Shown here: piece by piece, positions 15,313-54,627 of the stretch | Numbering within the stretch: position 1 is the stretch's first letter | Layout of the letters: each line of letters begins with the position of its first letter | Assembly (NCBI GenBank): GCA_040753955.1 | Contig: JBFMDQ010000005.1 | Coordinates: 1 to 61,848, forward strand | Length of the DNA: 61,848 nt | Source of the DNA: Nitrospirota bacterium | Lineage (GTDB): Bacteria; Nitrospirota; Thermodesulfovibrionia; Thermodesulfovibrionales; SM23-35 | Direction: 5' to 3' | Notes under the pieces: model-generated | Seen by the model: the letters and a program-made list of their open reading frames with translations, nothing else | The model's database searches: none | What the model was told of the DNA's origin: nothing | Made by a program: the position numbers and the translations under genes

Positions 15313-15325
15313 GGTTTATTTTAGC

Positions 15326-15482: not shown

Positions 15483-15598
15483 AGCAAAGTTCTAAAAAAG
15501 GGCTTTAGGCCTCATGAAGGAATTCCTCCCCATGGGTCGTAGACCTACGGGTCATAGACCGTTTGCAGGAGGACAGAGGAAGGAGGTTTGAAATAAAA

Positions 15599-17173
15599 AT
15601 GGTTCATACAGGATATTTACTGATAGCAGTATTTACAGGGCTTATCGTAGGATTAGTTCTGAGTCTTATCCACCGGGCAAGTCTAAAGAGTAAGAGAACC
15701 GCTATAGAAATAGAAATAGAAAAGGAAAAAATAAAGATAATTGGGGAGTCACAAAGAGAGGCTGAGAAGATTAAAAAAGAGGCACTCCTGGAGGCTAAGG
15801 ATATTGTCTATCAGGCCAAATCAGAGGTCGAAAAGGAGCTAAAGGAGAGACGTTCCGAGTTGAATCATCTCGAAAGAAGGTTAAGGCAGAAAGAGGAAAC
15901 CTTTGAGAAAAGGTTTGACCAACTTGAAAAGAGAGAACAGGAGTTATCCAAAAGAGAGAAGGATTATAACTTAAAGGAACGTATTATTCAGGAGAAGGAA
16001 GCCCGTTACAATCAGTTGATAAAAGACCAGACACGATTGTTGGAGAAGCTATCAGGGTTAGGCTCAGAAGAGGCAAAACAAGAGCTTTTAAGGAGAACAG
16101 AAGAAGAATCAAGGTTTGAGGCCGCTAAACTTATCAAAAGGATGGAGGATGAGGCAAAAGAAAGTGCAGAGAAAAAGGCGAAGGAGATAATAGGCCTTGC
16201 TGTAGAGAGGTACTCAAGTGACTATGTTGTAGATGCAACCGTAACTGCTGTAACCCTCCCTAATGATGAAATGAAAGGTAGAATAATCGGCAGGGAAGGT
16301 AGAAATATAAGGGCCCTTGAGGCTGCAACAGGTGTCGACCTGATTGTAGACGATACACCAGAGATGGTAACACTCTCCGCCTTTGATCCTGTCAGGCGTG
16401 AAATTGCAAGACTCTCTCTTGAACGGCTAATAACAGACGGGAGGATACACCCCACAAGGATCGAGGAGATAGTTGAAAAGGCAAGGAAGGAGGTTGAGAC
16501 ACACATCAGGGAGGAAGGGGAGAGGGCCGTTTTTGACCTCGGGCTTTCTGGCATACACCCTGAACTGATAAAACTCATCGGTAGGCTCAAATACAGGACA
16601 TCTTACGGTCAGAATGTCCTTCAACATTCAGGGGAGGTAGCATACTTCGCAGGTATAATGGCTGGTGAGCTTGGAGTAGATATAAAACTTGCAAAGAGGG
16701 CGGGCATTTTACATGATATCGGAAAGGCGGTAGACCGTGAAGTAGAAGGGTCACACCAGGAGATTGGTGCAAACGTAGCAAAAAAATACGGAGAGAATCA
16801 GAAGGTAATAAATGCCATATTAGTACACCATGGAGAAGGGGATCCAACCACTGTCGAGGCTGCCCTTGTGGCTGCCGCCGATGCCCTGTCGGCTGCACGC
16901 CCGGGCGCAAGAAAGGAGAGCATAGAGAGTTATCTTAAGCGCCTCGAGAAACTTGAGCAGATGGCCCTCTCCTATAAAGGGGTTGAGAAATGTTATGCAA
17001 TCCAAGCAGGGAGAGAATTAAGGATAATAGTAAAGCCTGAAGATGTGAGTGATGAAATGTCTTCTATAATGTCGAAGGAGCTCGCTAAAAAATTAGAGTC
17101 AGAGATGACATATCCAGGCCAGATAAAGGTTACCGTTATCAGGGAGTCGAGATATGTGGAATATGCCAAATAA
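15599..17173 (+). CDS. rny: Ribonuclease Y
   Basis: N-terminal TM, coiled coil, KH ([12 protein letters not shown]), HD motif (LHDIGK); AGGAGG RBS favours ATG 15599. Confidence 0.97.
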
Positions 17174-17214: not shown

Positions 17215-17997
17215 ATGAAGATTCTCTTTATAGGTGACATAGTGGGCAAGGTGGGCAGGATAACGACAAAGGCGTTGCTTCCTACCATTGTTGACAGATA
17301 TAAGATAGATTTAGTAATTGCAAATGGCGAGAACTTAGCAGGTGGCTTTGGGTTGACAGACAAAACGGTCTCCGAGATCTTTAGCTATGGCGTCCATATA
17401 ATAACCACGGGAAATCATGTATGGGATAAGAAGGAGTTTGTTGCCCAGATCTCAAAGGAAAACAGGGTACTCAGGCCTTTAAACTATCCCCCGGGGGTGC
17501 CCGGTTACGGGAGTATAATTTATCCACTTCCCAATGGTGAAAAGGTAGGGGTGATTAGTATATCCGGAAGGGTCTTTATGTCAAATATAGATTGTCCCTT
17601 CAGGACTGGCAAAGAGGAAGTAGAGAAGATAGGCCTTATAACAAAAATGATTATCGTAGATTTTCATGCAGAGGCAACCTCTGAGAAGATGGCTTTTGGC
17701 TATTTTATGGATGGCAGGGTAAGCGCTGTCATCGGAACCCATACGCATGTCCAGACCGCCGACGAAAGGATATTGCCCGGTGGGACAGCCTACATAACAG
17801 ATGTAGGAATGACAGGTCCCTACAACTCTATAATTGGTATAGAAAAAGAACAGGTCATACAGCGATTTTTAACAAATATGCCTGCGCGATTTGAGACAGC
17901 CAGGGGTGAGGGTATCTTCTCTGCTGTTATTGTTGAGATTGATGATAAAACAGGAAAGACCACAGCAGTACAGAGGCTCCAGCTGAGATATCCATGA
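17215..17997 (+). CDS. ymdB: YmdB-like metallophosphoesterase (TIGR00282 type)
   Basis: GDIVG, NGEN, TGNH, DFHAEATSEK and GTHTHVQT motifs. Confidence 0.93.
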   Translation: MKILFIGDIVGKVGRITTKALLPTIVDRYKIDLVIANGENLAGGFGLTDKTVSEIFSYGVHIITTGNHVWDKKEFVAQISKENRVLRPLNYPPGVPGYGSIIYPLPNGEKVGVISISGRVFMSNIDCPFRTGKEEVEKIGLITKMIIVDFHAEATSEKMAFGYFMDGRVSAVIGTHTHVQTADERILPGGTAYITDVGMTGPYNSIIGIEKEQVIQRFLTNMPARFETARGEGIFSAVIVEIDDKTGKTTAVQRLQLRYP

Positions 17998-18007
17998 GGG
18001 TGAGGAA

Positions 18008-18451
18008 ATGGTCGTCCTAAAATATATAGCCACCCTCGGTTTCATAGGTTATCTTCCTTTTGCACCTGGGACCCTCGGCTCTTTAATCGCCTTTACTTTC
18101 TTCATTATCTTAAAGCCATCACCTTTTATTCACACCATTATATTATCTCTCCTCATACCCGTTGGCATTATATCTTCCCGTCATGCCGAAAGGCTTTTGA
18201 AAACAGAGGACAGCAGGCATATAGTTATAGATGAATTTTGTGGCTATCTCCTTTCTGTAGTCCTTGTCCCATTCAGTATAGGCTATGCCTTAACGGCCTT
18301 TTTTTTATTCAGGTTTTTCGATATACTAAAACCGTTTCCGATAAAAAAGATAGGATTCGTTCTAAGCGGGGGGGAGGGTATAATGGCAGATGATATTGTG
18401 GCGGCCATATATACAAATTTAATTCTGCAGATATGGAAGCTCATTAATTAG
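18008..18451 (+). CDS. pgpA: Phosphatidylglycerophosphatase A
   Basis: APGTLGS, IVIDEFCG, FRFFDILKPFPI and MADD motifs. Confidence 0.93.
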   Translation: MVVLKYIATLGFIGYLPFAPGTLGSLIAFTFFIILKPSPFIHTIILSLLIPVGIISSRHAERLLKTEDSRHIVIDEFCGYLLSVVLVPFSIGYALTAFFLFRFFDILKPFPIKKIGFVLSGGEGIMADDIVAAIYTNLILQIWKLIN

Positions 18452-18460
18452 AACTCTAAA

Positions 18461-19030
18461 ATGTACCTGAGGTGTTTTATAGCAATAGGAATACCTGAGC
18501 AAATAAAAGGAAATATTGGCGGGCTTATTGAAACCCTGAAAAAATACAATGCAGATGTGAAGTGGGTAACATATAAAAACCTCCATCTTACGCTCAAATT
18601 TCTCGGCAAGACACCTGAAGAGTTGTTACCTAAGATAGGTGAGTCTCTGTCTGATATAGTATTATCTTATGAGCCCTTTTGTATTAAAATATGTAATATC
18701 GGAGTGTTTCCAAACAGAAGATATCCGAGGGTGATATGGGTTGGGGTGGAAGATTCAGAGATACTTAAAAGACTTCAAAGGGGTATCGAAGATTCAATGG
18801 CATTGTTGGGTTATGAAAGGGAAGACAAAGAATTTCATCCCCATCTGACACTCGGAAGGGTACGCTCTCAGAAAGGAATGGCAGATCTGATCAATGAACT
18901 TGACAGCTTTGAGAGAAAGGACTTTGGAAGCGTAGAGGTCGGCGATATAAAACTGATGCGTAGTGAACTAAAACCTACAGGGGCTCAGTATTATTGTTTA
19001 CATGAGATACGGTTTGGGAGGGAAAAATGA
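18461..19030 (+). CDS. thpR: RNA 2',3'-cyclic phosphodiesterase (2H family)
   Basis: Two HxT motifs (LHLTLKF, PHLTLGR). Confidence 0.92.
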
Positions 19031-20025
19031 CTGATAAAGACAAGGCTAAGGCACTCGAAATGGCTATTACACAGATTGAAAAGAGTTTTGGAAAAGGTGC
19101 CATCATGCGGCTTGGCGCAGGGGGAGTCACTGAGGGCATTCAGGTAATACCTACCGGCTCTTTAGCCCTCGATATCGCAACAGGGATTGGTGGATTACCG
19201 AGAGGCAGGGTTATAGAGATATTCGGTCCTGAAGCCTCGGGGAAAACCACGCTGGCCCTAAGTGCTATTGCACAGGCACAGATAGGCGGTGGCTCTGCGG
19301 CCTTTATAGATGCGGAACATGCACTCGATATTAATTATGCACAAAAACTCGGTGTTAAAATAGAAGACCTCCTTATCTCACAGCCTGATACGGGAGAGCA
19401 GGCCCTCGAGATTGCAGAGGCCCTCGTAAGGAGCGGGGCCGTTGATATCATCGCTGTAGATTCGGTTGCTGCTCTTGTGCCCAGGGCAGAGATAGAGGGA
19501 GAGATGGGTGATTCCCTTCCAGGGCTTCAGGCAAGGCTGATGAGCCAGGCATTGAGAAAGCTCGCCGCTGCAATATCAAAATCCCTGACCACAGTAATAT
19601 TTGTCAACCAGATAAGGATGAAGATAGGTGTGATGTTCGGCAGTCCAGAGACTACCACAGGTGGAACTGCATTGAAGTTTTATTCCTCCATGAGGCTCGA
19701 CATAAGGAGGATAGATAACATTAAAGAGAATCAGGAGACCGTGGGCGGAAGGGTAAGGGTAAAGGTGGTAAAGAATAAGATGGCCCCTCCTTTCAAACAG
19801 GCTGAGTTTGATATATATTTTAATGAAGGGATTTCGAGGGTTGGAGAGATTGTTGACCTCGGTGTTGAAAGAGGCATTATCGAAAAATCAGGGGCATGGT
19901 ATAGTTACGGCGGCAACAGAGTCGGTCAGGGCCGCGAAAATGCAAAAGAGTTCTTGAAAAATAGTATAGAGGTTTCAAGAGAGATTGAGAAAAAGATTAT
20001 CGAGTCCTGTAACCTGAGGAGATAA
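19027..20025 (+). CDS. recA: Recombinase A
   Basis: [28 protein letters not shown] and [10 protein letters not shown] motifs. Confidence 0.99.
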
Positions 20026-20027
20026 TC

Positions 20028-21167
20028 ATGGATATCAATGAGCTTTTGAAGAAGGCGCACTCATTAGATGCCTCAGACCTTCATATAAAGGTTGGATCTC
20101 CGCCGATACTTAGAATCTATGGAGAAATCACCCCCCTTACGTCGGAGGAAAGGGTAAGCCCTGAAGATGCATTGAGGATAGCCTTCTCTGTTATGACACC
20201 TGAACAGGGAGAGATATTCAAAAAGAGGAATGACATCGACTTTGCCTATAGTGTCTCCGGGCTAGGAAGGTTCAGATGTAACGTCTTCATGCAGAGGGGG
20301 ACGATAGGGATTGTTTTCAGGCTCATCCCGGTGAGGATCCCCACATTCGAGGAATTGCACCTCCCTGATGTTATTAAGAGGATTTCGATGGAAGAAAGGG
20401 GCTTGATCCTTGTTACAGGGACAACCGGTAGTGGAAAAACCACAACCTTAGCTGCAATGATAGACCTGATAAATACAAATAAAACAGAACACATCGTAAC
20501 CATTGAAGACCCGATAGAATATATACACAGTGATAAAAGAAGTGTAGTCAACCAGAGGGAGATAGGAAGCGATACTGAATCCTTCAGCAAGGCATTGAGA
20601 CAGGCCCTTAGACAGGACCCTGATGTAATACTCGTTGGGGAGATGCGTGATTTCGAAACCATCCAGACAGCATTGGTAGCGGCTGAGACAGGTCATCTTG
20701 TTTTGAGCACCCTGCATACAATAGATGCTACCGAGACAATCAATAGAATTATCTCTGTATTCCCCCCTTATCAGCATAAACAGGTGAGGATACAACTTGC
20801 ATCGGTGCTAAAGGGTATTATATCTATGAGGCTCATGCCGAAGTCAGACGGCAAAGGCAGGGTTCCTGCGGTTGAGGTTCTTGTAGCTACGACGACTGTA
20901 AAAGATTGCATCCTCGATCCAGATAAAACAAAATTAATCCATGATGTAATTACACAAGGGGCGATACATTATGGCATGCAGACCTTTGACCAGTCTCTCC
21001 TTGGCCTTTTTAAGTCAGGGCTCATAACCTTTGAAGAGGCACTTAGATGGGCCACAAATCCTGACGATTTTGCCCTCAAGGTAAAAGGCATCCAGTCCAC
21101 AAGCGACCTTGCATTTGAAGAACTTTCTGAGAAGGACAAGATGAAGATTGATAGGTTTGCACGATAA
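20028..21167 (+). CDS. pilT: PilT/PilU-family type IV pilus ATPase
   Basis: GTTGSGKTT, TIEDPIE, ALRQDPDVILVGEMRD and TGHLVLSTLHT motifs. Confidence 0.88.
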   Translation: MDINELLKKAHSLDASDLHIKVGSPPILRIYGEITPLTSEERVSPEDALRIAFSVMTPEQGEIFKKRNDIDFAYSVSGLGRFRCNVFMQRGTIGIVFRLIPVRIPTFEELHLPDVIKRISMEERGLILVTGTTGSGKTTTLAAMIDLINTNKTEHIVTIEDPIEYIHSDKRSVVNQREIGSDTESFSKALRQALRQDPDVILVGEMRDFETIQTALVAAETGHLVLSTLHTIDATETINRIISVFPPYQHKQVRIQLASVLKGIISMRLMPKSDGKGRVPAVEVLVATTTVKDCILDPDKTKLIHDVITQGAIHYGMQTFDQSLLGLFKSGLITFEEALRWATNPDDFALKVKGIQSTSDLAFEELSEKDKMKIDRFAR

Positions 21168-21621
21168 GGCAAGGCAATATGCCTTGAAGCTCCTGGGCTA
21201 CAGAGGAAGAAGCAGAAAGGAACTGGAAGAAAGGCTTACAAAAAAGGGGTTCTCTGAAACTGTGGTCTCCTCTACAATAAACTATCTCAGGGATGTAGGG
21301 CTTATTGACGACAGGGCATTAGCTGAGGCGTTGAAAAGAGAGGCAATAACAACAAAACTTTTCAGTCAATATGGTGCAAGGAAATTCATGCTTACCAGGG
21401 GCATACCGAGGGAGATTGTTGATTCGATGTTCATCCCTGATGAAAAAGAAGATATTGAGAATGCTAAGAGGCTTGTAGACAAAAAACTGAGGATTATGAA
21501 GAACTATCCAGCAGAAAAGATAAAGAGAAGACTATATAATCTTCTTCTCAGGAAGGGTTACTCCTTTGAGACGATAGAGGCTGTATTAAAGGGCAAAAAA
21601 TTTAAGGAGGATTTAAGATGA
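21148..21621 (+). CDS. recX: Regulatory protein RecX
   Basis: ALKLL..R.RS.KEL.ERL; LLRKGYS; downstream of recA. Confidence 0.88.
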   Translation: MIGLHDKARQYALKLLGYRGRSRKELEERLTKKGFSETVVSSTINYLRDVGLIDDRALAEALKREAITTKLFSQYGARKFMLTRGIPREIVDSMFIPDEKEDIENAKRLVDKKLRIMKNYPAEKIKRRLYNLLLRKGYSFETIEAVLKGKKFKEDLR

Positions 21622-38001: not shown

Positions 38002-38029
38002 TTTGTTTTCCCCCCTTTAGTTTTGTTAT

Positions 38030-38176
38030 TAATACAAACGCATTAAATGCCTTTACATCGTCATTGCGAGCGACCAACGGGAGCGTGGCAATCTCACTTT
38101 ATAAGTAGGAGATTGCTTCGTCGCCCGCCTTTGGCGGACTCCTCGCAATGACACTTTACTTAATGCGTTTGTATTA
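38030..38176. mobile_element. 147-bp MITE with perfect 17-bp TIRs and nested REP units
   Basis: TAATACAAACGCATTAA 38030-38046 / TTAATGCGTTTGTATTA 38160-38176; inner GTCATTGCGAG/CTCGCAATGAC and GCAATCTC/GAGATTGC. Confidence 0.8.
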
Positions 38177-38218
38177 GCTTTAATTTTGATATATTCTATA
38201 CAGCAAATTAAAAATGAG

Positions 38219-38872
38219 TCAAGGAAAAAGTGTGAGATGCTTCTTAAACCACTCAGCCGCGAATCTTGCCACCTCTTCCAGCGTGCCGGGCTCTTCAAAC
38301 AAATGCGTTGCACCAGGAATAATTCTCAATTCTTTTTCAGCTTTGATCAGCTTGTATGATTGTTGATTAAGCTGGATGACTACGTCGTCGTAGCCTCCGA
38401 CTATCAGGAGAGTTGGAGCTTTAACGTGCTCAAGGGCTTGCTCTGCGAGATCTGGGCGACCGCCGCGTGAGACGATTGCACTTACTCCTATGCCAGGTTC
38501 AGTAGCTGCCAAGAGTGCTGCAGCAGCTCCTGTACTTGCCCCAAAATAGCCGATATTGAGATTTCTGGTTTGCGGCTGATCTTTGATCCATCGGGTAGCT
38601 GCTATCAAACGCTCTGCCAGCAAAGGCATATCAAAACGTTTTTCATAGAAAGTATCTTCTTCCCTGGTGAGCAGGTCAAAAAGCAGCGTGCCCAGTCCAG
38701 CTTCATGGAGCACCTGTGCCACATACTTGTTTCTCTTGCTGTGCCGGCTGCTGCCACTGCCGTGTGCAAAAATTACCAATGCCTGCGCCTCTCGAGGGAC
38801 ATCCAGAACTCCTTCGAGGACAGCGGAATCCGCAGGGATATGGACTAACTTTGAGGAGTTGTCACTAAGCAT
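38219..38872 (-). CDS. Alpha/beta hydrolase, dienelactone-hydrolase-like (the type often fused to PRTases)
   Basis: FAHGSGSSRHS, GYFGASTGA nucleophile elbow, SRGGRPDL, PGATHLFEEPG. Confidence 0.9.
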   Translation of the reverse strand: MLSDNSSKLVHIPADSAVLEGVLDVPREAQALVIFAHGSGSSRHSKRNKYVAQVLHEAGLGTLLFDLLTREEDTFYEKRFDMPLLAERLIAATRWIKDQPQTRNLNIGYFGASTGAAAALLAATEPGIGVSAIVSRGGRPDLAEQALEHVKAPTLLIVGGYDDVVIQLNQQSYKLIKAEKELRIIPGATHLFEEPGTLEEVARFAAEWFKKHLTLFP

Positions 38873-38938
38873 ACTGATCCTCTAAACAGTATTTAACCCT
38901 CAATGTGTCGAAGTTGTCAAGAATGCTAAAATTAATGT

Positions 38939-39952
38939 GTGAAGAAAGAGGCATATTTATACAATAGGCTTGATGAAGGAAAGGTTATGTGCCACACGTG
39001 TCAGAGGAGATGTGTAATCTCGGAAGGGAAAAGGGGCTGGTGTCATACGAGGCTAAATGAAGGTGGGAAACTCTTCAGCCTGATATATGGAGAGGTTTCC
39101 TCACTATCAATAAACCCAATTGAAAAAAAGCCTGTCTTTCATTTCTATCCTGGCTCGAGATGGCTCTCCCTGGGAAGTGTGGGATGTAACTTTCGCTGTC
39201 TTGGCTGCCAGAACTGGGATATAGCCCATTGGAAGGAAGGACCGATGTACACGGAACACCTATCTCCAGAGGAATTGGTTTCTAAGACGAAGGCCACTCG
39301 TTCTTTAGGTATTTCGTGGACTTTCAATGAACCGGCTTTATGGTTTGAATACACCCTTGATGGGGCAAAACTTGCAAAGGCTCAAGGACTCTATACTAAT
39401 TATGTAACTAATGGTTTTATTACAGGAGAGGCCTTTGACATGATCGCGCCCTATCTTGATGTCTATAGAGTTGATATAAAAGGCTTCTCTGACAGGACAT
39501 ATCAGAGAATCGGTCACATAGAAAAGTTTAAAGGGATCCTCGAGATAGCTGAAAAGGCGAAGGAATACGGAATGCATGTGGAGGTCGTAACGAATATTAC
39601 ACCGGGATTCAATGATGACGAGAAAGAACTCCGGGGCATTGCATCATGGGTTAAAAATATCCTCGGCCCTGAAGTTCCCTGGCATGTTACAAGGTTTTAT
39701 CCCCATCTTAAGCTCAGCCATCTGCATCCAACACCTATCTCTGAACTCGAAAAGGCATGGTCTATAGGGAAAGAGGAAGGACTCTGGTATGTCTATCTCG
39801 GAAATGTCCCAGGCCACAGGTGGGAAAATACCTATTGTCATGTCTGTGGTGAACTGCTCATAGAAAGATATGTCTTTGAGATTATAAAAAATAAGCTTAA
39901 AGATAGTAGATGCCCGAAATGTAGCACTATTATACCAGGAAAATTTTCCTGA
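38939..39952 (+). CDS. AmmeMemoRadiSam-system radical SAM enzyme (PflX-like)
   Basis: N-terminal CxxC..C..C Zn domain; IEKKPVFHFYPG; CNFRCLGC SAM motif; C-terminal CxxC pairs. Confidence 0.9.
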   Translation: MKKEAYLYNRLDEGKVMCHTCQRRCVISEGKRGWCHTRLNEGGKLFSLIYGEVSSLSINPIEKKPVFHFYPGSRWLSLGSVGCNFRCLGCQNWDIAHWKEGPMYTEHLSPEELVSKTKATRSLGISWTFNEPALWFEYTLDGAKLAKAQGLYTNYVTNGFITGEAFDMIAPYLDVYRVDIKGFSDRTYQRIGHIEKFKGILEIAEKAKEYGMHVEVVTNITPGFNDDEKELRGIASWVKNILGPEVPWHVTRFYPHLKLSHLHPTPISELEKAWSIGKEEGLWYVYLGNVPGHRWENTYCHVCGELLIERYVFEIIKNKLKDSRCPKCSTIIPGKFS

Positions 39953-39958
39953 AGTGTT

Positions 39959-40125
39959 AAATCCTAAATTCTAAACAATATCAAATGACAGAAATCCAAA
40001 GTTATGATTCAGGGTATAAGAAAAGTTTTTTACATTTGAATTTGTTTAGGATTTAGACTTCGTCGTGAGCCCTCGACCTGAGCTCGGGCCGAAGGTTCAG
40101 TCGAACGACATCAGGATTCGGAATT
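39959..40125. repeat. Inverted heptamer-type element with a nested REP-in-REP insert, supplying the hel308 stop
   Basis: CTAAATTCTAAACAA 39964-39978 / TTGTTTAGGATTTAG 40042-40056 (14/15), then GACTTCGTCG...TCAGTCGAACG. Confidence 0.7.
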
Positions 40126-42264
40126 TAAAAGAGTCTGGTTTTTTATATCCTCTGCAATGGTCTTTCCCATAGCTGGCACTTTTGCGAGCTCCTCGATTGA
40201 CGCCTCTCTGATGTTTTTAAGAGTTTTATACCCTGCATCATAGAGATTTCTTGCCCTCACCCTTCCTATACCTCGCAGGGTCACGAGTGGGAGGAGTTCT
40301 TCCCTTACGCCATATATGACTCTCGTCCTCAAAAGTGACACAGCCTTTCCCCCCGCCTTCAAACTAAAGACCCTGGCTATCTCACCAGCCGAATAAAGAA
40401 GCCAATCCGAAAGCTCCACCAATGTGCGGAGGTCGCCCGGCCCTACACCAAAATGGCCGACTATCCTGTCTTCTGGCGTCTCCAGTATCCACTGCATCAG
40501 GAGAGAAGCGGTCTTAAGCTCGGAAAGAATCTCATCTGACGGATATCTTTCATCCTCGGGGATTAAAAGCTCTTCAGCGTGGGCATAGAATACTTCGATC
40601 ATCTCCCTATAGTCCTTCTTCCTCAGTTGAAGCACCATCATATCCGGTGTATGAGCTATCATATGAAGGAGAGGCAATACCTCTTTTCCCTTAGGCTGGT
40701 GCAAAGCATCCCTGATTATTAGGCCTGTCAAAGGGTCTATATAAAGCTCTGAGACGCGATGGCCAAACCTTGTGGCTGCAAATCCCCTTTTATCGGCTAT
40801 TACCATTCCCTCGGTTGCAAGAAAATCAACTATCTTATCTGTGATGGATGTGAGGTACCCAACCCCTCTCTGATAGGCAAAAAAGGTATGTTTCAGAAAA
40901 TCTATTAACTCTGCCTTGTTTCGTGTAAAGACACCTGCTATGGATGCAAGGATGTGGGACCTGAGGGCAGACTCATTGGCAAGTTGAGAAGTTATCTTTT
41001 CAGGCCTGCCAGCAATGTAATTCTTAAATAGGTTCTGTTCGTCCCTCTTATCTCGGGCTATGAGGATGGCTTCTCCATATCTATCAAACCCGGGTCTTCC
41101 CGCCCTTCCTGACATCTGTTTTATCTCGATGACAGGGATTGGACGGATTCCGAGTCCAAATTGGTACCTCCACCAATCTCGGATAATAACCCTTCGTGAT
41201 GGCAGATTCAGTCCCATCGCAAGCGTAGTGGTAGCAGCGACGAGCTTTATTTTGTTACCTCTGAAGGCATCCTCGATAAGTCTCCTCTGTGAGGAATTAA
41301 TACCCGCATGGTGGAAGGCAACACCTTTGCTTACACATTCGGCAAGTTTTTTACATAGTCGAGTTGGCTCTGGAGATGCCTCGATAACTTGCTCTGAAAG
41401 CCTTTTAAGAGATTCCTTTTCCTGCTCCTGAAGCATATCGGCAATATCCCAGGAGGCCCTACGAGCAACTGTCTCGGTTGACCTTCTTGTGTTTACAAAG
41501 ATGAGGGCTTGTCCAGCATCTTTTATAGTCTCAATGGCGAGATTTAACACATCCAGGTAGCTCACTTTCTCTATCCACTTTACAGAACCATCATTAAAGA
41601 TTACGGCACTATTAAAATAGACTCCCTCTCTGAGGGGTACAGGCCTCCAGTCAGATTCGATGAGCTGTGCATTAAGCCATGTGGCGATCTCGGCTGCATT
41701 CGGTATAGTAGCACTTAATGCTATAAACCTAAGTCCTGGATTCATCCACCTCAAACGGGTAAGGACAGCCTCAAGGGTGGGTCCCCTGTGGGAGTCTCCA
41801 AGGAGATGGATCTCATCTGCTACGACAAGGTTCACCTCCCTTAGCCATGAGGCACGATGCCTTAAGAGAGAGTCCATTTTCTCGTTTGTTGATATGATGA
41901 GGTCAGCGTTATAAAGCCAGGGATCTGCACTGTCGTAATCACCCGTGCTCTGCACTATCCTTATACCAATGTCTCTATACTTCTTTGAGAAGTCTTCAAA
42001 TTTCTCCCTAGCGAGGGCCCTTAAAGGCACAAGGTAAATAACCTTTCCTCCTGTCTTTAAAAACATCTTGAGTGCTGCTATCTCGGCGATAAGGGTCTTG
42101 CCAGATGCAGTAGGGGCTGCCACGACAAAAGAATCTCGACCTTTCAAGAGGTCTGCCTTTATTGCCAGAACCTGGGGCGGATAAAACTCCTTAAGACCTA
42201 TAGAAGCCAGAGTCTCTATGAGCCTCTCAGACCCGCCATAGGCACCTAAATCCCTTATATTCAT
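40111..42264 (-). CDS. Archaeal-type Ski2-like SF2 helicase Hel308
   Basis: APTASGKT, DEIH, SAT, FHHAG and QMSGRAGRPG motifs; C-terminal GIGRVRAR HhH domain. Confidence 0.9.
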   Translation of the reverse strand: MNIRDLGAYGGSERLIETLASIGLKEFYPPQVLAIKADLLKGRDSFVVAAPTASGKTLIAEIAALKMFLKTGGKVIYLVPLRALAREKFEDFSKKYRDIGIRIVQSTGDYDSADPWLYNADLIISTNEKMDSLLRHRASWLREVNLVVADEIHLLGDSHRGPTLEAVLTRLRWMNPGLRFIALSATIPNAAEIATWLNAQLIESDWRPVPLREGVYFNSAVIFNDGSVKWIEKVSYLDVLNLAIETIKDAGQALIFVNTRRSTETVARRASWDIADMLQEQEKESLKRLSEQVIEASPEPTRLCKKLAECVSKGVAFHHAGINSSQRRLIEDAFRGNKIKLVAATTTLAMGLNLPSRRVIIRDWWRYQFGLGIRPIPVIEIKQMSGRAGRPGFDRYGEAILIARDKRDEQNLFKNYIAGRPEKITSQLANESALRSHILASIAGVFTRNKAELIDFLKHTFFAYQRGVGYLTSITDKIVDFLATEGMVIADKRGFAATRFGHRVSELYIDPLTGLIIRDALHQPKGKEVLPLLHMIAHTPDMMVLQLRKKDYREMIEVFYAHAEELLIPEDERYPSDEILSELKTASLLMQWILETPEDRIVGHFGVGPGDLRTLVELSDWLLYSAGEIARVFSLKAGGKAVSLLRTRVIYGVREELLPLVTLRGIGRVRARNLYDAGYKTLKNIREASIEELAKVPAMGKTIAEDIKNQTLLNSES

Positions 42265-42375
42265 AAGTAAGCTTATCTCATAGGATTAAGAAATACAATA
42301 GATTAAGCCTAATCCGAGGCAATTCGCCTTTGGCGGATTGCCTGACCCAAAGTCCAAAATTTGCTAAACTAAATA

Positions 42376-43473
42376 ATGGCACAGTGCAAGATATGTAATG
42401 CTATTTCGAACTCCATCTCAAAGGAGCTCAGCATATGCCTTAAATGTATAAGGGAAAAACCTGATGATTCCCTTCCATTTGCAATGCAGGCTCATAGGAG
42501 GAGCAGGTCTGCCTTTGGGCTTCCTGAGAATCCTCCAAAGGATCCTAAGGGAGTTCCCTGCAGAATCTGCGTGAATGAATGCAGAATTCCCGAAGATGGA
42601 ACAGGATTCTGTGGATTGAGAAAAAATGAAGGAGGAAGGCTTATAGGTGTAACGGCAATGCAGGGCAAACTTTCATGGTATTATGACCCCCTTCCAACAA
42701 ATTGTGTTGGAGACTGGGTATGCCCCGGAGGGACAGGGGCAGGCTACCCAGAATATGCTTACTCACCAGGGCCTGAGATAGGATATAAAAATCTCGCAGT
42801 ATTTTTCCATGCCTGCTCTTTCAATTGCCTTTTTTGTCAGAACTGGCATTTCAAGAGGGAAACCTTACGGCCACAGACAACTTCTGTAAGTAAACTTGTC
42901 TCAGATGTTGATAAAAAGACCTCCTGTATCTGTTATTTTGGAGGTGACCCAACACCACAACTACCATTTGCACTCAGGGCATCGAGGCTTTCCCTCGAGA
43001 AGAATAAGGGAAGAATCCTCAGGATATGCTGGGAGACAAATGGCTCCATGAATAAAGCATTCCTTGATAAGATGATAGAACTCTCTCTGAATTCTGGTGG
43101 CTGTATAAAGTTTGATCTAAAGGCATGGGATGAAAATCTCCATATAGCCCTGACAGGTACCACTAATAAAAGAACCTTGGAGAATTTCTCAAGGGTTGGC
43201 GAAAAGATCAAGGTGAGACCTATCCCTCCTCTTCTAATTGCAAGCACCCTCCTTGTGCCAGGCTACATAGATGAGAAAGAGATAAGAGGCATTGCGAAAT
43301 TCATCGCCTCAATAGATCCTGATATTCCCTATAGCCTGCTTGCCTTTTATCCCCATTTTTATATGTCGGACATGCCTTTAATAACAAAGGCCCTTGCTAT
43401 GGGATGTCTCAGGGCTGCTCAAGAAGAAGGGGTCAAAAATGTGAGGATTGGGAATGTCCACCTGCTCGTATGA
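42376..43473 (+). CDS. PflX-like radical SAM protein with N-terminal Zn fingers
   Basis: CSFNCLFC motif; CKIC...CLKC and CRICVNEC...C; WETNG, KFDLKA. Confidence 0.85.
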   Translation: MAQCKICNAISNSISKELSICLKCIREKPDDSLPFAMQAHRRSRSAFGLPENPPKDPKGVPCRICVNECRIPEDGTGFCGLRKNEGGRLIGVTAMQGKLSWYYDPLPTNCVGDWVCPGGTGAGYPEYAYSPGPEIGYKNLAVFFHACSFNCLFCQNWHFKRETLRPQTTSVSKLVSDVDKKTSCICYFGGDPTPQLPFALRASRLSLEKNKGRILRICWETNGSMNKAFLDKMIELSLNSGGCIKFDLKAWDENLHIALTGTTNKRTLENFSRVGEKIKVRPIPPLLIASTLLVPGYIDEKEIRGIAKFIASIDPDIPYSLLAFYPHFYMSDMPLITKALAMGCLRAAQEEGVKNVRIGNVHLLV

Positions 43474-43484
43474 ATAACCATGAA

Positions 43485-43567
43485 AGGGTTCGAGGATTCG
43501 AGGGTTCAAGGGTTCGAGTTTTATAAATTATTTCACTTGACCACTTGAATCCTTGACCCCCTGAACC
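43485..43567. repeat. Inverted pair of octamer arrays
   Basis: (AGGGTTCG-type)x4 at 43485-43516, then (CACTTGAC/TCCTTGAC-type)x4 at 43534-43567. Confidence 0.8.
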
Positions 43568-44356: not shown

Positions 44357-44492
44357 CGCAACAGCCGATAGCAGAGTGCTTGAGGTTAATACACAAAGGC
44401 GACGCCCTTCTCGATCACTCGAAACGATACCCAAAATGACGCTTCGCTTGAACGCCTTTATAGGCATTTGTAACATGCATTATGAATGTTAG
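44357..44492. repeat. attC-like repeat family copy 3 (mosaic of copies 1 and 2)
   Basis: 44357-44412 matches 720-772; 44421-44492 matches 1336-1410 apart from a 3-bp indel and one substitution. Confidence 0.85.
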
Positions 44493-48242: not shown

Positions 48243-51026
48243 ATGTATATTAAAGTCTTTTATGCCCCCTTCCGGTACAGAGGGTCCACAGAGACCCTGC
48301 TTAAGGCATCAGTTGACAAAATAAAAGGCCCTGATTATTCAATAATCCTTTATATTGCTCCTACACCGAGAAAGGTGAGGGATGCTCAGCGGATATTTCA
48401 TAGACTTACTGGGGGCTGTTACATTCCTCCTGAGATGATGACGATTAAACAACTCTCAAAAAGGCTCTACTCTCTTTACGGAGACAGAAACGTCATATCT
48501 CAGCACCTCATACCTGTCGTAATCTCACAGATTTCTGGTAAAGGGATGGGCTTCGCATCCCTCATTGCAGATTTTATCAATGAGATTAAGCAGTATCATC
48601 CAGGTAAAGGTATCGAAACTATCAGAAAAGAGCTAAAGGCTATTTTTTATGAACTCGGTATCCCTGAAGGGGTCTCAAGCAGGGCGATGGAAGCTATAGA
48701 GATCTTTAAGGCATATCAAGAAATTCTGGAAAGACAGTCTGTTTTGGACGAAGATGATGTGATGGCAGTATGCCCTCGCCTGATTAAAGGGCATAACTGG
48801 AGCCCCGAGACCCTCATACTCGATGGATTCTACGAACTTACCAGTTCAGAAGAGGCAATACTGAAGGCACTGGTCGAGAATACAAAGGACATCCTTATCT
48901 CAATGCCCCATGATATTAATTTTTCAGAAATAACAAATAGTTACGGCAACTTTATAAAAAATAACTTTAGATCTGAAGAGGTCTATTTACCCTGCACCAC
49001 ACCCTTGGTGCGGGGTTTATCTACTGAGGAAAAGGCAATAGACCCCTTTTATTGTCCATATCCTGGAATGGAGGAAGAGGTTGAAGGAATTGCAAGATGT
49101 ATAAAGAACTACTTTATATCAGGAAAGATAAGGGATTTAGAAAAAATAATAGTCGCGTTCCCAAAATTATACGAATATTCAGACATAGTAGAACGCATCT
49201 TCAGAAGATATGGCATACCACACACTATCTCGGTTTCGAAGCCTGCTGGGAAGTCACAGCCCTTTCTTGACCTGATGGCCCTCCTTGAATCTGTTGTAGA
49301 TGATTATCCGAGACTTCCATTCTCCCGATTCCTTTCATCACCTTATTTTAGAAATATGCCTTCAGAATTCAGAGAATGGATTCCTATGCTCTGCCTCAGA
49401 TCAGGGATCATAAAGGGGAAAGACGCATGGCTCAACCTATCAAAGACAGTCAGCAGTCTTCCATCTAAAATCAAGAAAGGACTTAGGTGGGTCTTCAAGA
49501 AACTTGCGCCACTGGAATCTATAAAGAATAAAGGAAATTACAGCCAATATAGTAAAGTTATCGGTGATCTCTTGAATGACCTTGATTTTTCAGGTGTCAG
49601 TAGCCAGGAGGCAGATCTAAAGGAAAAGGCAATTAGCATATTGAAGGAGCTCTCCTTTATTGAAAATCTCACTCCTTATGACTCACGCCTTAAGTTTCAA
49701 GACTTACGCCAATTTATAGATGCCCTCAGGCATATTCTGAATGCCACAGATATGGAGATAGAAGGCACGGGTGTGCAGATTATGGGCTTTTTTGAGCTGA
49801 GAGGAATCGAGCCAGAATATCTTTACTTAGGGGGACTCAAGGAAGGAGACCTGCCATCAAAGCCTGATATTGACTACATATTGCCTGACAGTGTAAGGAC
49901 AAGGTTCGGCCTCATAAACCTGAAAAAATATCTACTCCTGCAGAGATTTATATTCTCAAGGACGATAGAATCAACAAAAAACCTCCACCTCTCCTATCCC
50001 GTAATGGAGGGGGATAGATTTTTCCTTCCCTCCCCATTACTCCCCTGGAATAGAGAGAAAAAAGAGCGGGTTTCGGGAATCTTCTCAAGAGAGGAAGAAT
50101 TATTGGGAAAGGGCAGAAGGCCTTTTGCATCATATATTACGGAGATAGAGGAGGTCGGGGAAAAGTTAATCAGAAATAAGTTTGGAGAAAACTCTTACAT
50201 CAGGGCCACTGACATAGACTCTTACAGGACCTGTCCGAGGAAGTTCTTTATAGAAAAAGTCCTCCAGCTTGAACCCCCGGAGACAAAGGAGTATAAGGTC
50301 GAGGCTATGCTCCTCGGAACCATAGTCCATGAAACAATGCAGCTTCTTTTATCAAAGCCCTTCGCTGACGTCGAAGACCTCAGGGTTAAGGCGGAAGAGA
50401 TAATGGAAGGCCTCCTCTCTGATAAACCTCTCGAAAATTACTGGAAGAAGCTGATTAAAGACACATTCCTTTCTATCCTGCCAGAAATATATGAGCTCGA
50501 GAGCAGCCTTATTGATGAGGGTTATTCATTTATGAAGGCTGAGTTTCCCGTTGAGGGCGAAATTATAAAAGGGATAAGACTTAAAGGAAAGATAGACAGA
50601 ATTGATAGAAAAATTCAAAATTCGAAATTCGAAGTTCGAAATTCGAAAGATGTTGTTGAGCTTGTTGATTACAAGACCGGGATAACTCAGATCAGGGGAT
50701 CACAAGTAATAACAAAAGGCGCTACTTTACAGTTATTCATCTACGCAGCATTGATGAAGTTGCTGGGATTTAAGGTAGAGCGTGTGGGCATCTATTCACT
50801 CAAAGACATAAACTTATCATGGATCCCGGGAAAGAGTGACAGGAGGGATGGACGGACAATAGAAGATTATATAGAGGCAACTCTCAGATTTCTTGAGGAA
50901 ACGATATTAAATATAAAGATGGGAAATTTTTCTGCATCTCCATTGAGTGAGCAGACATGCAGGAACTGTTCAGAAAGGCCATACTGTCCATATATACAAA
51001 AAACAGTTATAAGTTATAGGTTATAA
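48243..51026 (+). CDS. addB: AddB/RexB-like PD-(D/E)XK nuclease subunit with Fe-S cysteines
   Basis: YRTCPRKFF and CRNCSERPYC (4 Cys); GKIDRID...VDYKTG...QLFIY; degenerate N-terminal helicase-like domain. Confidence 0.82.
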   Translation: MYIKVFYAPFRYRGSTETLLKASVDKIKGPDYSIILYIAPTPRKVRDAQRIFHRLTGGCYIPPEMMTIKQLSKRLYSLYGDRNVISQHLIPVVISQISGKGMGFASLIADFINEIKQYHPGKGIETIRKELKAIFYELGIPEGVSSRAMEAIEIFKAYQEILERQSVLDEDDVMAVCPRLIKGHNWSPETLILDGFYELTSSEEAILKALVENTKDILISMPHDINFSEITNSYGNFIKNNFRSEEVYLPCTTPLVRGLSTEEKAIDPFYCPYPGMEEEVEGIARCIKNYFISGKIRDLEKIIVAFPKLYEYSDIVERIFRRYGIPHTISVSKPAGKSQPFLDLMALLESVVDDYPRLPFSRFLSSPYFRNMPSEFREWIPMLCLRSGIIKGKDAWLNLSKTVSSLPSKIKKGLRWVFKKLAPLESIKNKGNYSQYSKVIGDLLNDLDFSGVSSQEADLKEKAISILKELSFIENLTPYDSRLKFQDLRQFIDALRHILNATDMEIEGTGVQIMGFFELRGIEPEYLYLGGLKEGDLPSKPDIDYILPDSVRTRFGLINLKKYLLLQRFIFSRTIESTKNLHLSYPVMEGDRFFLPSPLLPWNREKKERVSGIFSREEELLGKGRRPFASYITEIEEVGEKLIRNKFGENSYIRATDIDSYRTCPRKFFIEKVLQLEPPETKEYKVEAMLLGTIVHETMQLLLSKPFADVEDLRVKAEEIMEGLLSDKPLENYWKKLIKDTFLSILPEIYELESSLIDEGYSFMKAEFPVEGEIIKGIRLKGKIDRIDRKIQNSKFEVRNSKDVVELVDYKTGITQIRGSQVITKGATLQLFIYAALMKLLGFKVERVGIYSLKDINLSWIPGKSDRRDGRTIEDYIEATLRFLEETILNIKMGNFSASPLSEQTCRNCSERPYCPYIQKTVISYRL

Positions 51027-51029
51027 GTT

Positions 51030-53867
51030 ATGGAAAAGTATCTGGATATAACAAAGAGTGTCATCATCTCATCCCCTGCTGGTTCAGGGAAGACAGAGAA
51101 GCTTGCAAGGCGATATGTCAGCCTATTGCTTGGCGGCTCTGAAATAGAAAAGATACTGGCAGTCACATTCACAGAAAAGGCTGCAGCAGAGATGAAGGAT
51201 AGGATACTTACTATCCTTGAAAAAGAGGATCCCGATTTATTCCTGAAGGTTCGAGAGAAGATGCCCCTTATGCGCATATCTACAATCCATGCCTTCTGCC
51301 TTAAGTTACTCAAACGTTTTTCAATAGAGCTCGGCCTCGATCCATCACTTGATGTAATAGATGAATTCAGTGCTTCCCTCCTCTGGTCAGAGTCTGTTTA
51401 TGAATGCCTGATAGAGGAGAAAAACAGCCCTGACCTCTTTTTTGAGATGATGAAAAACAGGGGCATAAAAGGCTGGGATGGCCTTTTCAGGCTCCTCAAT
51501 GAATTGCACAGCAGGAGACCTCATTCAGAGCTCTTTTTAAGAGAAAATCACCCTGTCGAGGGAGAGGAAGAAAAGAGGATCCTTGAGTTATATTCACGAT
51601 GTCTTAAACGATATACCGATAAAAAATTCGAGAGACATCTCATTGATTTTGATGACCTTGAGTTACTCACATACGAAGCCCTTATCAAAAACCCGGAATG
51701 GCAGAATATCCTTTATTCCTTTGACGAGCATACAGACCACATACTTGTGGATGAGTTCCAGGATACAAGCTCTCTTCAATGGAAGATTATAGACAGATTC
51801 ACAGAGGAATGGCGGTCAGGCATCGGTGCAAAAAAGGACTCGGGAAAGATACCAACCATCTTCCTCGTTGGAGATGAAAAACAGTCCATATATCTCTTCA
51901 GAGGTGCAAACGTGGGCGTATTTCAGGAGGCAAAGGAGAGATTTTCTGAATGGCTTGGAAGGGAATACTACTTCGAAGAAATAAGGGAAAACTATCGGAG
52001 CCTTCCTGAAATAACAAAATTTATCAACAGCCTTTTCGAAGGACTGATGCACCCTGATCCCGACCCTGAATCAAGTTCAGGGGATTCAGGATATGAAAGC
52101 TGGCGTACCAGGTACGCACCCTTTGAGGCAACAAGACAGGGTGATGGTCGTGTTGAGCTCATTCTCATGGAAGGTGGCGAAGGCACAAAGAAGAGTCGTG
52201 AGCAGGAGGCATCAGTTTTATCAAAGAGGATACAGTCCCTTGTTAATCACTATGAGATATTTGATGGGGACATGAAAAGGCCATGCATTTATGGTGATAT
52301 GGCAATACTTCTCAGAAGGAGAACCCATCTATCTATATTTGAGGATGCATTGAGGAGACATGGGATACCCTTCATTGTTGTAAAAGGTATCGGTTTTTAT
52401 GATGAACCAGAAGTTGCACTACTAAGAGAACTGCTTTCTCTTATTATCGATCCGATGGATGACTACAGCCTATTCTGTATCTTGAGGTCTCCTCTTTTTG
52501 GCATTGACTACAGGACGTTATTCAGACTGATTGATAAAACAGGTGACCGATCCTTGTTAGAGGAGATTCGATCAACAAAAAATAAAAAGGTCGGGGAGGC
52601 ACTCAATCTCATCTCGGGATGGATTGAAAGATCCAGATATACCCCCCTTGCAATGCTTCTTGAGGATGCACTTTCAGAAACAGGAGGCTGGCAATATTAC
52701 TGGGAAAAACAGAGGCATGCAAATATAAAAAAATTCATAAGGCTCATTGAACAATATGAGTCTCAAGGGTTTTCTACCCTTGATATCAGGGAAAAACTCA
52801 TCAAGGCAAGGCAGGGTGATGAGGCAAAGGCAAATATCAACACTGAGGGTATGAATGTTGTAAGGATAATGACCATCCATGCTGCTAAGGGGCTCCAATT
52901 TCCAATGGTATTTCTTCCATCCCTTGATGAGGATAACAGTCCCAGGACCAAATCCATTGTCATTGACGAAGAAGGTGGAAGGATTTCTATAGCATACGAG
53001 GAGGACCCTGCCAAAAGAAAGAAGATGGAATCTTTCTTGAAGAGAAAAGAAAAGGAACTCGAAGAAGAAAAGAGACTTTTCTATGTCGCTGTCACAAGGG
53101 CACAGGATTTCCTATGCATGCTTGGGGCATGGAAAAAGGAGAAAAAGGCCTCAGGACGACTTGCATATATTATTGATACCCTTGAACACCTCTCCTCCCT
53201 AAAAATCATGAATGAATCCCAGATAGATGAGATATACTTTACTTGTAACTCATCACTTAGCACTCATCAGCTGCCTTCAGAGCCATTCATGTCAGAACCG
53301 ATGTACACAGAGCCCATTTCGTATGAGCCTCCATTTAAATGGCGGGATGTCACAGAGGAGATAGATATAAGAGTAAGACATGGTGAGGAATGGGTCTTGC
53401 TTGGAAAGGTCTTTCACAAACTCTTTGAGGAACTCTCAAAAGGGCATATAGGGATTGATGACATAGAAAAAAGGGCATTAATTCTCTTGAGAGCCGAGAT
53501 ATACAACAAAAAAGAGGTAGAGAGAATGACGGAGATTATAAAAAGGGATTTTGAAAGGCTTTCAGTATCAGGATACCTCAAGGATATAGTTTTTCCCCTG
53601 AGGAACTCTCACGCAGAGCTCCCCTTTAACCTGCTGAAAGGAAAAACTATCTTCAGAGGCAGAATTGATAGGATTATCGTAAAGGATAATATTGCCCATA
53701 TATATGATTACAAGACCTTTCCTATAGGGGAAAAGGAATTATCGGAGCTCATTGATAAATACAGATTCCAGATGGATATTTACAGAGAGGCTGTAGAGAA
53801 GATATTCTTCTTGAGGACAAGGAGTTACCTGCTCTTTACCCACATGCCTTTGTTAGTAGAGGTGTAG
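51030..53867 (+). CDS. addA: AddA/RexA-like UvrD helicase-nuclease
   Basis: AGSGKT, VDEFQDT, VGDEKQSIY.FRGA, TIHAAKGLQFP, YVAVTRA; C-terminal GRIDR...DYKT nuclease. Confidence 0.88.
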   Translation: MEKYLDITKSVIISSPAGSGKTEKLARRYVSLLLGGSEIEKILAVTFTEKAAAEMKDRILTILEKEDPDLFLKVREKMPLMRISTIHAFCLKLLKRFSIELGLDPSLDVIDEFSASLLWSESVYECLIEEKNSPDLFFEMMKNRGIKGWDGLFRLLNELHSRRPHSELFLRENHPVEGEEEKRILELYSRCLKRYTDKKFERHLIDFDDLELLTYEALIKNPEWQNILYSFDEHTDHILVDEFQDTSSLQWKIIDRFTEEWRSGIGAKKDSGKIPTIFLVGDEKQSIYLFRGANVGVFQEAKERFSEWLGREYYFEEIRENYRSLPEITKFINSLFEGLMHPDPDPESSSGDSGYESWRTRYAPFEATRQGDGRVELILMEGGEGTKKSREQEASVLSKRIQSLVNHYEIFDGDMKRPCIYGDMAILLRRRTHLSIFEDALRRHGIPFIVVKGIGFYDEPEVALLRELLSLIIDPMDDYSLFCILRSPLFGIDYRTLFRLIDKTGDRSLLEEIRSTKNKKVGEALNLISGWIERSRYTPLAMLLEDALSETGGWQYYWEKQRHANIKKFIRLIEQYESQGFSTLDIREKLIKARQGDEAKANINTEGMNVVRIMTIHAAKGLQFPMVFLPSLDEDNSPRTKSIVIDEEGGRISIAYEEDPAKRKKMESFLKRKEKELEEEKRLFYVAVTRAQDFLCMLGAWKKEKKASGRLAYIIDTLEHLSSLKIMNESQIDEIYFTCNSSLSTHQLPSEPFMSEPMYTEPISYEPPFKWRDVTEEIDIRVRHGEEWVLLGKVFHKLFEELSKGHIGIDDIEKRALILLRAEIYNKKEVERMTEIIKRDFERLSVSGYLKDIVFPLRNSHAELPFNLLKGKTIFRGRIDRIIVKDNIAHIYDYKTFPIGEKELSELIDKYRFQMDIYREAVEKIFFLRTRSYLLFTHMPLLVEV

Positions 53868-53892: not shown

Positions 53893-54627
53893 TTAGAGCC
53901 CAGTTCTTACCCTAATTATACCTCCTCTGGCATCATCTCCGACCCAGTATCCAACATTACCTCTGACTGCTATCTCCCCTCCCGTCATCTTTTTCCCCAC
54001 TATATGGCCTGTATTACCTCTGATCAGAATAAGACCGCCTTCCATCCTCTCTCCCACCCAGTTCCGGGTATCACCTTCAATGATTATGCGGCCGCCCTTC
54101 ATCGATCTTCCAAGATAGTTGCCCACATTTCCACTGACCAGGATCTCGCCCCCTTCCATTTCCATCCCAAGGTAGTAAGCCTTATTACCAATAATCTCCA
54201 GCCTTCCGCAACTATGTCTATAACCTAAACCTGATATGCTGGCAGGGTATTTCCTGAGATCAAGTCTGAGGACATCTTTTTCTCTGATTACATCTTTGTA
54301 TAGACCGGAGGTATAAAACCCCAACAATCCACCCCTCATGAAGTTAGACAGGACGTCATTGAAAAGTCTTTCGACCTCCAGAAGATTTACATCATATTCC
54401 TTGGCGGCACTTTTTCCGAAGTTGAATATTTTTTCTACAGTAAAGGGATCTATTTTCCAGCTCGGTATTTTTGATCCCCAGCTCACAAATTCTCTGGCAA
54501 GTTCCTCAACCTTATCGTACTTTAATCCCTCCTCATATCTGCGCCTTCTTTCCTTATTTTCTAAATCAAGAAAGTCGACCCTCAATAGGCTTGGATTTTT
54601 CTCCAGTAGCCTCTTAATGCCCTGCAT
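53893..54627 (-). CDS. Hypothetical protein with C-terminal GXGXG (FwdC/GltB-C-like) beta-helix repeats
   Basis: Repeats of G.YLG..M.GG.I.I.G; frame extends upstream to ATG 54708 through one TAG. Confidence 0.75.
   Translation of the reverse strand: MQGIKRLLEKNPSLLRVDFLDLENKERRRRYEEGLKYDKVEELAREFVSWGSKIPSWKIDPFTVEKIFNFGKSAAKEYDVNLLEVERLFNDVLSNFMRGGLLGFYTSGLYKDVIREKDVLRLDLRKYPASISGLGYRHSCGRLEIIGNKAYYLGMEMEGGEILVSGNVGNYLGRSMKGGRIIIEGDTRNWVGERMEGGLILIRGNTGHIVGKKMTGGEIAVRGNVGYWVGDDARGGIIRVRTGL

Follow-up and report, generated by a model that had tools for sequence, protein, structure and literature searches.

We analysed a 61,848-nucleotide contig of a Nitrospirota bacterium (JBFMDQ010000005.1 of assembly GCA_040753955.1), called here the window, in which a complete gene for a Ski2-like helicase of the Hel308/Hjm family lies between two paralogous radical SAM genes. 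The window corresponds to the complete contig C5 of a metagenome-assembled genome (MAG; G000 below) of 1.69 Mb, obtained from a groundwater metagenome in 80 contigs and 97.8% complete. The closest named relatives of this genome are Nitrospirota of the Thermodesulfovibrionales, and the window contig carries the bacterial markers RNase Y, HslUV, a bacterial AlaS, XerC and PilT. Coordinates of the helicase, its domains, its surroundings and further features are collected in Table 1.

Domains and fold of the helicase

The window protein possesses a complete superfamily 2 (SF2) motor, comprising the Q motif, Walker A, the DExH box, SAT and motifs IV to VI. Aligned with 45 archaeal and bacterial Hel308 relatives (46 sequences in all), it retains every one of the 55 invariant columns, among them Q31, T52/K56, D150/E151/H153, S184/A185, Q383/G386/R387/G389/R390, W592 and G667/R668/R672. 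An arginine-rich RxRAR motif in domain 5 is family-defining for Hel308; in the corresponding GRVRAR of the window protein, G667, R668 and R672 are invariant across the 46 proteins, and R670 and A671 are nearly so. The Helicase_dom4_arc match was recovered at identical coordinates in a scan of the whole genome, and the matches of the NCBIfam Hel308 models run from end to end of the protein.

Table 1. Position, strand and basis of the features discussed (window coordinates; residue numbers refer to the window protein)
Feature	Position	Strand	Basis and remarks
hel308, Ski2-like SF2 DNA helicase, Hel308/Hjm family	40111..42264	-	717-residue open reading frame, ATG start; Pfam, PDB match, AlphaFold2 model
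RecA-like domain 1	41692..42177	-	Pfam DEAD, residues 30-191; Q31, Walker A APTASGKT 50-57, DEIH 150-153, SAT 184-186
RecA-like domain 2	41089..41385	-	Pfam Helicase_C, residues 294-392; motif V T345..P355, beta-hairpin 365-375, motif VI QMSGRAGR 383-390
Winged-helix domain 3	40801..41076	-	Pfam HTH_61, residues 397-488, 23 bits (cut-off 24.3); helical/winged-helix in the model, covered by the structural alignments
Domain 4, helical 'ratchet'	40309..40674	-	PF21280 Helicase_dom4_arc, residues 531-652, 115.6 bits; invariant W592, E595, W621
Domain 5, helix-hairpin-helix	40138..40287	-	Pfam HHH_5, residues 660-709; GRVRAR 667-672
Inserted segment	39953..42375		2.4 kb; hel308 and two intergenic spacers only; absent from G001
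3' spacer	39953..40110		mosaic of 30-55 bp dispersed repeats with ~10 other copies in G000; also in G001 and in contigs of groundwater runs
5' spacer between the divergent starts of hel308 and rSAM2	42265..42375		unique in G000 (blastn finds itself only)
Left flank rSAM1, AmmeMemoRadiSam-type radical SAM	38939..39952	+	TIGR04337, 291 bits, over cut-off; 92% amino-acid identity to G001; lineage-native
Right flank rSAM2, paralogous radical SAM	42376..43473	+	87% amino-acid identity to G001; lineage-native
RecO	8492-9325
6S RNA	15087-15320		81 bits; the RNase Y gene (15563-17173) follows closely downstream
RecA	19027-20025
RecX	21148-21621
AddB/AddA-like pair	48243-53867		927 + 945 residues; scores far below curated AddAB cut-offs (AddB 78 against 904 bits)

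An AlphaFold2 model of the window protein, built on the same 46-sequence alignment, reached a pLDDT of 92.8 and a pTM of 0.90. It superposes on the Hel308/Hjm entries 2zj8, 2zj2, 2p6r, 2va8 and 9b15 with TM values of 0.86-0.95 over ~700 columns, with POLQ (TM ~0.8) and Brr2 both ranking behind them. At the sequence level, full-length PDB matches were obtained to Pyrococcus furiosus Hjm (2zj2, E 3e-164), Archaeoglobus fulgidus Hel308 (2p6r) and Sulfolobus solfataricus Hel308 (2va8), with E-values from 3e-164 to 6e-144. Strands 365-368 and 372-375 of the model form a beta-hairpin placed between motif V (345-355) and motif VI (383-390); a strand-separating role of the hairpin in the second RecA-like domain was described from the A. 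fulgidus structure (PMC5758891).

The protein is equal in length to the archaeal Hel308/Hjm enzymes of known structure (2zj2/2zj8, 2p6r and 2va8), with which it shares the five domains in identical order, 37-43% identity, all SF2 motifs, the hairpin between motifs V and VI, the ratchet tryptophans and the GRxRAR of domain 5. It differs from them in its host, a bacterium without detected PCNA, in lacking a C-terminal tail that resembles a PCNA-interacting peptide (PIP), in belonging to a separate bacterial subclade and in scoring just below the curated equivalog cut-offs. Judging by its intact motifs and modelled fold, we predict that the product of hel308 is a working Hel308-type 3'-to-5' DNA helicase, and this forms part of the explanation that we favour. 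The original prediction had read the gene as a full-length archaeal-type Hel308 with a RAR/helix-hairpin-helix domain, coexisting with RecA, RecO and AddAB. The first point is borne out by the motifs, the five domains and the GRVRAR; the second stands in that all these genes are in the window, with the AddB/AddA-like pair well under the curated cut-offs.

Metazoan HELQ and the helicase-like domain of POLQ have the Ski2-like fold in common with the window protein, including the ratchet domain (E ~1e-61, TM 0.78-0.81). They differ in their ~25% identity, in extra N-terminal or polymerase regions and in forming oligomers, and they are not close to the window gene or its clade. We also considered and rejected an identity as Lhr or Lhr-core. 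The Lhr core has RecA and winged-helix domains in common with Hel308 (PMC5758891), and the two share an SF2 Ski2-like core, but the C-domain of Lhr is unrelated; PRK09751 gave only 38.7 bits, over residues 76-198, and domains 4 and 5 of the window protein are of Hel308 type.

The insertion site

The comparison with a second genome of the same genus, G001, which has no Hel308, delimits the segment gained. Window positions 38172-39947 correspond to G001:C92:15841-17616 at 95%, and positions 42377-43480 to 17627-18730 at 88%. Between the radical SAM genes, however, G001 has ~10 bp where the window has 2.4 kb, with hel308 on the opposite strand. The two radical SAM proteins are 28% identical to each other. 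Orthologues of rSAM2 (56-87% amino-acid identity) occur in 16 of the 40 relatives searched, and a seventeenth (G003) has a fragment with internal stops. The tight pair, with a spacer of 5-11 bp, is found in G013, G010, G036 and G026 as well, which together with G001 makes five genomes of three families; G013 and G026 have Hel308 on other contigs. This uninterrupted arrangement across at least three families of the order indicates that the closed pair is ancestral and that the window represents a gain. Most likely, hel308 was inserted in G000 after the split from its sister species.

A second assembly of public data agrees with the junctions. In this independent Logan assembly, a contig of 3422 bp spans positions 39395-42816, including both junctions, with 0 differences and at a depth of 174, against 149-167 on adjoining contigs. 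The single public run with this stretch is a groundwater metagenome, possibly the source sample and hence not an independent one, and no RNA run is recorded as containing it; runs X2 and X3 contain short repeats only, without hel308. With the junctions bridged at even depth and without mismatch in the Logan contig, and with both flanks collinear to those of G001, a chimera can for practical purposes be dismissed. Among 883 long open reading frames of G000, hel308 ranks at the 95th percentile for GC content (0.469, against a mean of 0.431), at the 90th for GC content at third codon positions (GC3) and at the 80th for codon usage; the gene is thus slightly GC-rich without being a compositional outlier.

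Intergenic repeats of 30-150 bp occur around the site, at window positions 38027-38178, 39959-39999, 40056-40109, 43483-43519 and 44367-44399, and recur in numerous contigs of both G000 and G001. High-depth contigs of other groundwater runs contain them too. They often include palindromes and have the look of repetitive extragenic palindromes (REP) or miniature inverted-repeat transposable elements (MITE).

A bacterial clade of Hel308

The nearest homologue of the window protein, at 79% identity, comes from a Nitrospirota MAG. Identities of 69-73% are reached by proteins of Candidatus Brocadia (Planctomycetota), Thermodesulfobacteriota and Thermodesulfovibrionales, and 55-56% by those of Coprothermobacterota and Syntrophaceae, whereas archaeal Hel308s remain at 38-50%, apart from one archaeon-labelled protein, P0121, at 56%. 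In a collection of 5.8 billion proteins, at least 120 clusters (formed at 90% identity) lie at 60% identity or more to the window protein, and all the named ones are bacterial. These bacterial Hel308s, 55-79% identical to the window protein, have the same architecture and an equally short C-terminus. All are stand-alone genes, and their database annotation goes no further than 'DEAD/DEAH box helicase'. The site of the gene differs by genus, the splitting of a conserved radical SAM pair being its setting in the window, and we found no neighbour common to bacterial Hel308 loci beyond close relatives.

In all three trees that we built, the bacterial sequences form one clade with a support of 100 (FastTree with 172 rows; IQ-TREE under LG+C20 PMSF with 79 rows; IQ-TREE under LG+F+G4 with 1000 ultrafast bootstraps and 48 rows). 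Phyla are interleaved within it: two genera from the family of the window genome itself have copies more distant from the window copy than those of Brocadia and Thermodesulfobacteriota. The clade always falls on the side of Asgard archaea, Halobacteriota and Thermoplasmatota, away from Thermoproteota. Its stem measures 0.22-0.27, no longer than branches inside archaeal orders. P0121, an intein-bearing protein with a PIP-like C-terminal peptide, is its basal member. A second bacterial group, made of Omnitrophota and Bipolaricaulota/Acetothermia sequences together with unnamed intein-bearing proteins, joins the main clade in the FastTree tree only and not in the two IQ-TREE trees.

Some sequences met in this survey depart from the standard form. 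Many Hel308 representatives (P0121-P0124, P0127, P0131, P0133 and P0134, among others) are 850-1400 residues long and match the query with a break near residue 350 or 385, positions in motifs V and VI that fit the presence of inteins. In a genome of the window's order, Hel308 is encoded in two overlapping frames split near residue 524 (L008/L009, G028:C33:76396-78527), which may be a frameshifted or decaying copy. The Halobacteriota proteins L097, L099, L103 and L104 are Brr2-like Ski2 helicases with a Sec63 domain, L097 having NucS_N and HRDC domains in addition; under LG+F+G4 they emerge inside the halobacterial Hel308s, in agreement with PMC10946056.

The family is distributed very unevenly between the domains of life. 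Among 122 archaeal genomes, Hel308 was found in 61 of 61 Thermoproteota and in 60 of 61 Halobacteriota. In the host phylum the count is 11 of 301 genomes, nearly all within one order; 2 of 251 Desulfobacterota genomes gave a strong match, and among 201 Planctomycetota genomes the only strong match was in the query centre itself. The model of domain 4, run on 14 control genomes, matched only in the 4 archaea.

Archaeal and bacterial Hel308s also differ at their C-terminus. We called PIP-like any [QK]xx[LIVM]xx[FYW] pattern within the last 14 residues, a feature that is frequent in archaeal Hel308s and not family-defining. The window protein ends 45 residues past its GRVRAR, with ...IKNQTLLNSES, and has no such tail. 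A PIP-like C-terminus is present in 1 of 120 members of the bacterial clade, against 16 of 30 from Thermoproteota, 9 of 30 from Halobacteriota and 49 of 148 representatives (Fisher p 4e-13, for sequences that are related and not independent). The stretch following GRxRAR has a median of 45 residues in the bacterial clade, compared with 58-63 in the archaeal sets. PCNA was not detected in G000. With the tail missing and no PCNA detected, the bacterial Hel308s look like PCNA-independent derivatives.

Origin, spread and function

We now propose a history for the gene. The Hel308 lineage would have left Archaea once, long ago, and would since have passed, unaccompanied by other genes, among anaerobic bacteria belonging to several phyla. 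Its arrival in G000 would postdate the separation from the sister species and would have taken the form of a single-gene insertion of 2.4 kb between co-oriented radical SAM genes, the donor most probably being another bacterium from the same kind of community. Because Hel308 is near-universal in the sampled archaea and rare in bacteria, an inter-domain, archaeal origin of the bacterial clade is the most economical reading. An old transfer from archaea to bacteria followed by spread from bacterium to bacterium fits best with a clade that is placed among archaeal Hel308s, occurs in few bacteria and combines several phyla. Taken as a whole, from a working Hel308 and its single old exit from Archaea to the bacterial spread and the recent insertion in this contig, the account appears to us to be very probably right.

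The original prediction had described the family as typical of archaea, which the counts above confirm, and had considered inter-domain transfer likely. Of the latter claim, a probable archaeal ultimate origin survives, while a direct or unique import from archaea does not, the immediate history being bacterial. It had also named grouping within a broad bacterial clade as the outcome that speaks against it, and a maximum-likelihood tree does place the gene in a multi-phylum clade of just this kind. The other controls suggested there turned out well for the contig: the genes on both sides are bacterial, with flanks collinear to those of the same-genus genome, and a chimera is dispelled by the Logan contig.

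If it behaves like the Hel308 enzymes whose DNA complexes have been solved, the protein would engage DNA at a fork or at a 3' single-stranded tail and thread single-stranded DNA through a ring formed by the RecA domains, the winged helix and the ratchet domain. The duplex would be split on the beta-hairpin 365-375, and domain 5 would act as a brake on the emerging strand. In the cell, Hel308 may act on stalled forks or on intermediates of recombination, remodelling them without PCNA, beside RecA, RecO, RecG and the AddAB-like pair. In G000 we detected RecG but no RecQ over the family cut-off; that Hel308 substitutes for RecQ is a hypothesis. More broadly, and with considerable doubt, one may picture the clade as a PCNA-independent derivative that lost its PIP tail after leaving Archaea. 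It could then be a single-gene 'repair cassette' circulating in slow-growing anaerobes (Thermodesulfovibrionales, anammox Brocadia and Desulfobacterota) and supplying a 3'-5' helicase function for forks and recombination where RecQ is absent.

Several results weigh against parts of this picture. That the bacterial clade is nested within Archaea is an indirect conclusion, drawn from distribution, the short stem and P0121, and the Hel308 tree is unrooted. The outgroups (Brr2-like, ASH-like and bacterial Ski2-like paralogues) sit on branches 2.4-6.7 long and are not monophyletic. Under LG+F+G4 they scatter, the Brr2-like ones inside Halobacteriota and the others on long archaeal tips, and we claim no root. 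The label of P0121, 'Euryarchaeota archaeon', comes from a 5.4-kb MAG contig and is provisional. At the junctions we found no integrase, transposase or target-site duplication. A promoter scan detected no sigma-70-like site in the 5' spacer, and no clear Shine-Dalgarno sequence precedes hel308; the terminator-like matches of the scan fall within the hel308 reading frame and are uninformative. The curated NCBIfam equivalog cut-offs for Hel308 are all missed, with 834.4 against 887 bits for the best model, PRK02362, then 695 against 1216 for PRK00254, 592 against 1200 for NF040935 and 528 against 891 for PRK01172. We infer that these misses reflect the distance of the clade from the particular archaeal groups to which the models were tuned; they speak against an equivalog of those groups and do not run counter to family membership. 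As for RecQ, it is absent from the Hel308-less sister genome too, and it occurs in 1 of 8 genomes with Hel308 against 12 of 33 without, so that the two are not significantly exclusive (Fisher p 0.40, among genomes that are kin).

Other histories of the gene can be set against these data. A direct and recent transfer from an archaeon to G000 would account for a family typical of archaea, for its absence in the sister species and for the GC content above the mean. It is made highly improbable by dozens of bacterial homologues at 60-79% identity, where archaeal ones reach at most ~50%, by the position of the gene deep inside the bacterial clade, by a codon usage in the host range and by the missing PIP-like tail, a lack shared with the rest of the clade. 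An artefact of assembly or binning, in which an archaeal or other foreign fragment was joined to a bacterial contig, could be suspected in a groundwater MAG of 80 contigs with short dispersed repeats adjoining hel308; given the Logan contig across both junctions, the collinear flanks and the bacterial nearest homologues, its likelihood is negligible. Also very unlikely, if slightly less so, is vertical descent of the gene within bacteria from before the divergence of the phyla, with loss almost everywhere. The presence of the clade in many phyla, a tree whose root is not fixed and the 79% identity to the copy of G013, a genome of the same family, not far under the 85-90% of neighbouring housekeeping genes, are all compatible with such descent. 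They have to be balanced against the occurrence of the gene in only ~0.5-4% of genomes per phylum, the intrusion of Brocadia and Thermodesulfobacteriota among Nitrospirota and a locus that is different in every genus. The short stem and the Omnitrophota/Bipolaricaulota group, which two of the three trees do not join to the main clade, likewise tell against it.

Two further alternatives concern function. Physical adjacency might suggest that Hel308, the two radical SAM genes, a phosphoribosyltransferase-like gene and a hydrolase together form a functional local module. One locus of Candidatus Brocadia sp. AMX1 (L027:127-1283) indeed has a fragment of an rSAM1-like gene, of 34% identity, followed directly by a Hel308 fragment that covers residues 90-309. 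Yet G001, G013, G036, G010 and G026 keep the radical SAM pair tight without Hel308 between them, 0 of ~20 other bacterial Hel308 loci have these neighbours, and hel308 lies on the opposite strand; we give such a module hardly any credence. It is also very unlikely that the protein works in defence, as Hachiman HamB or a similar helicase, instead of in repair. A functional resemblance between HamB and Hel308 has been noted (PMC12278908), the two have the SF2 Ski2-like core in common, PADLOC HamB models score up to 186 bits, and the gene is mobile and patchy, with variable contexts. These matches, however, fall into two separate segments and reach no further than the two RecA domains, compared with 834 bits from end to end for the Hel308 model, and domains 4 and 5 are of Hel308 type. 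HamB depends on HamA and carries different flanking domains, whereas neither HamA nor another effector gene is adjacent to hel308, whose neighbours are radical SAM genes. L027 is the only other Hel308 locus with an rSAM1-like neighbour, and coincidence is possible there.

Returning to an old archaeal exit followed by bacterial spread, the locus and its relatives make the textbook claim that bacteria have no Hel308 too strong. No fewer than five or six bacterial phyla have an intact Hel308 lineage, which moves horizontally and has shed the peptide that links many archaeal copies to PCNA. It amounts to a natural experiment, with a fork helicase of archaeal/eukaryotic type placed beside bacterial SSB, RecA, RecG and AddAB, for which the presence and absence of the gene in G000 and G001 provide a clean comparison. 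This is no new kind of enzyme or system, and the sequences were already public under generic names; it is the host range that is unusual. We found no published description of a bacterial Hel308 clade in the literature searched, which is no proof that none exists.

Two further features of the window were noticed. The AddB/AddA-like pair may be a divergent helicase-nuclease pair and not canonical AddAB. Shortly after it, positions 53893-54627 encode a 244-residue protein that resembles subunit C of formylmethanofuran dehydrogenase, with 99 bits against a cut-off of 131, in a bacterial context.

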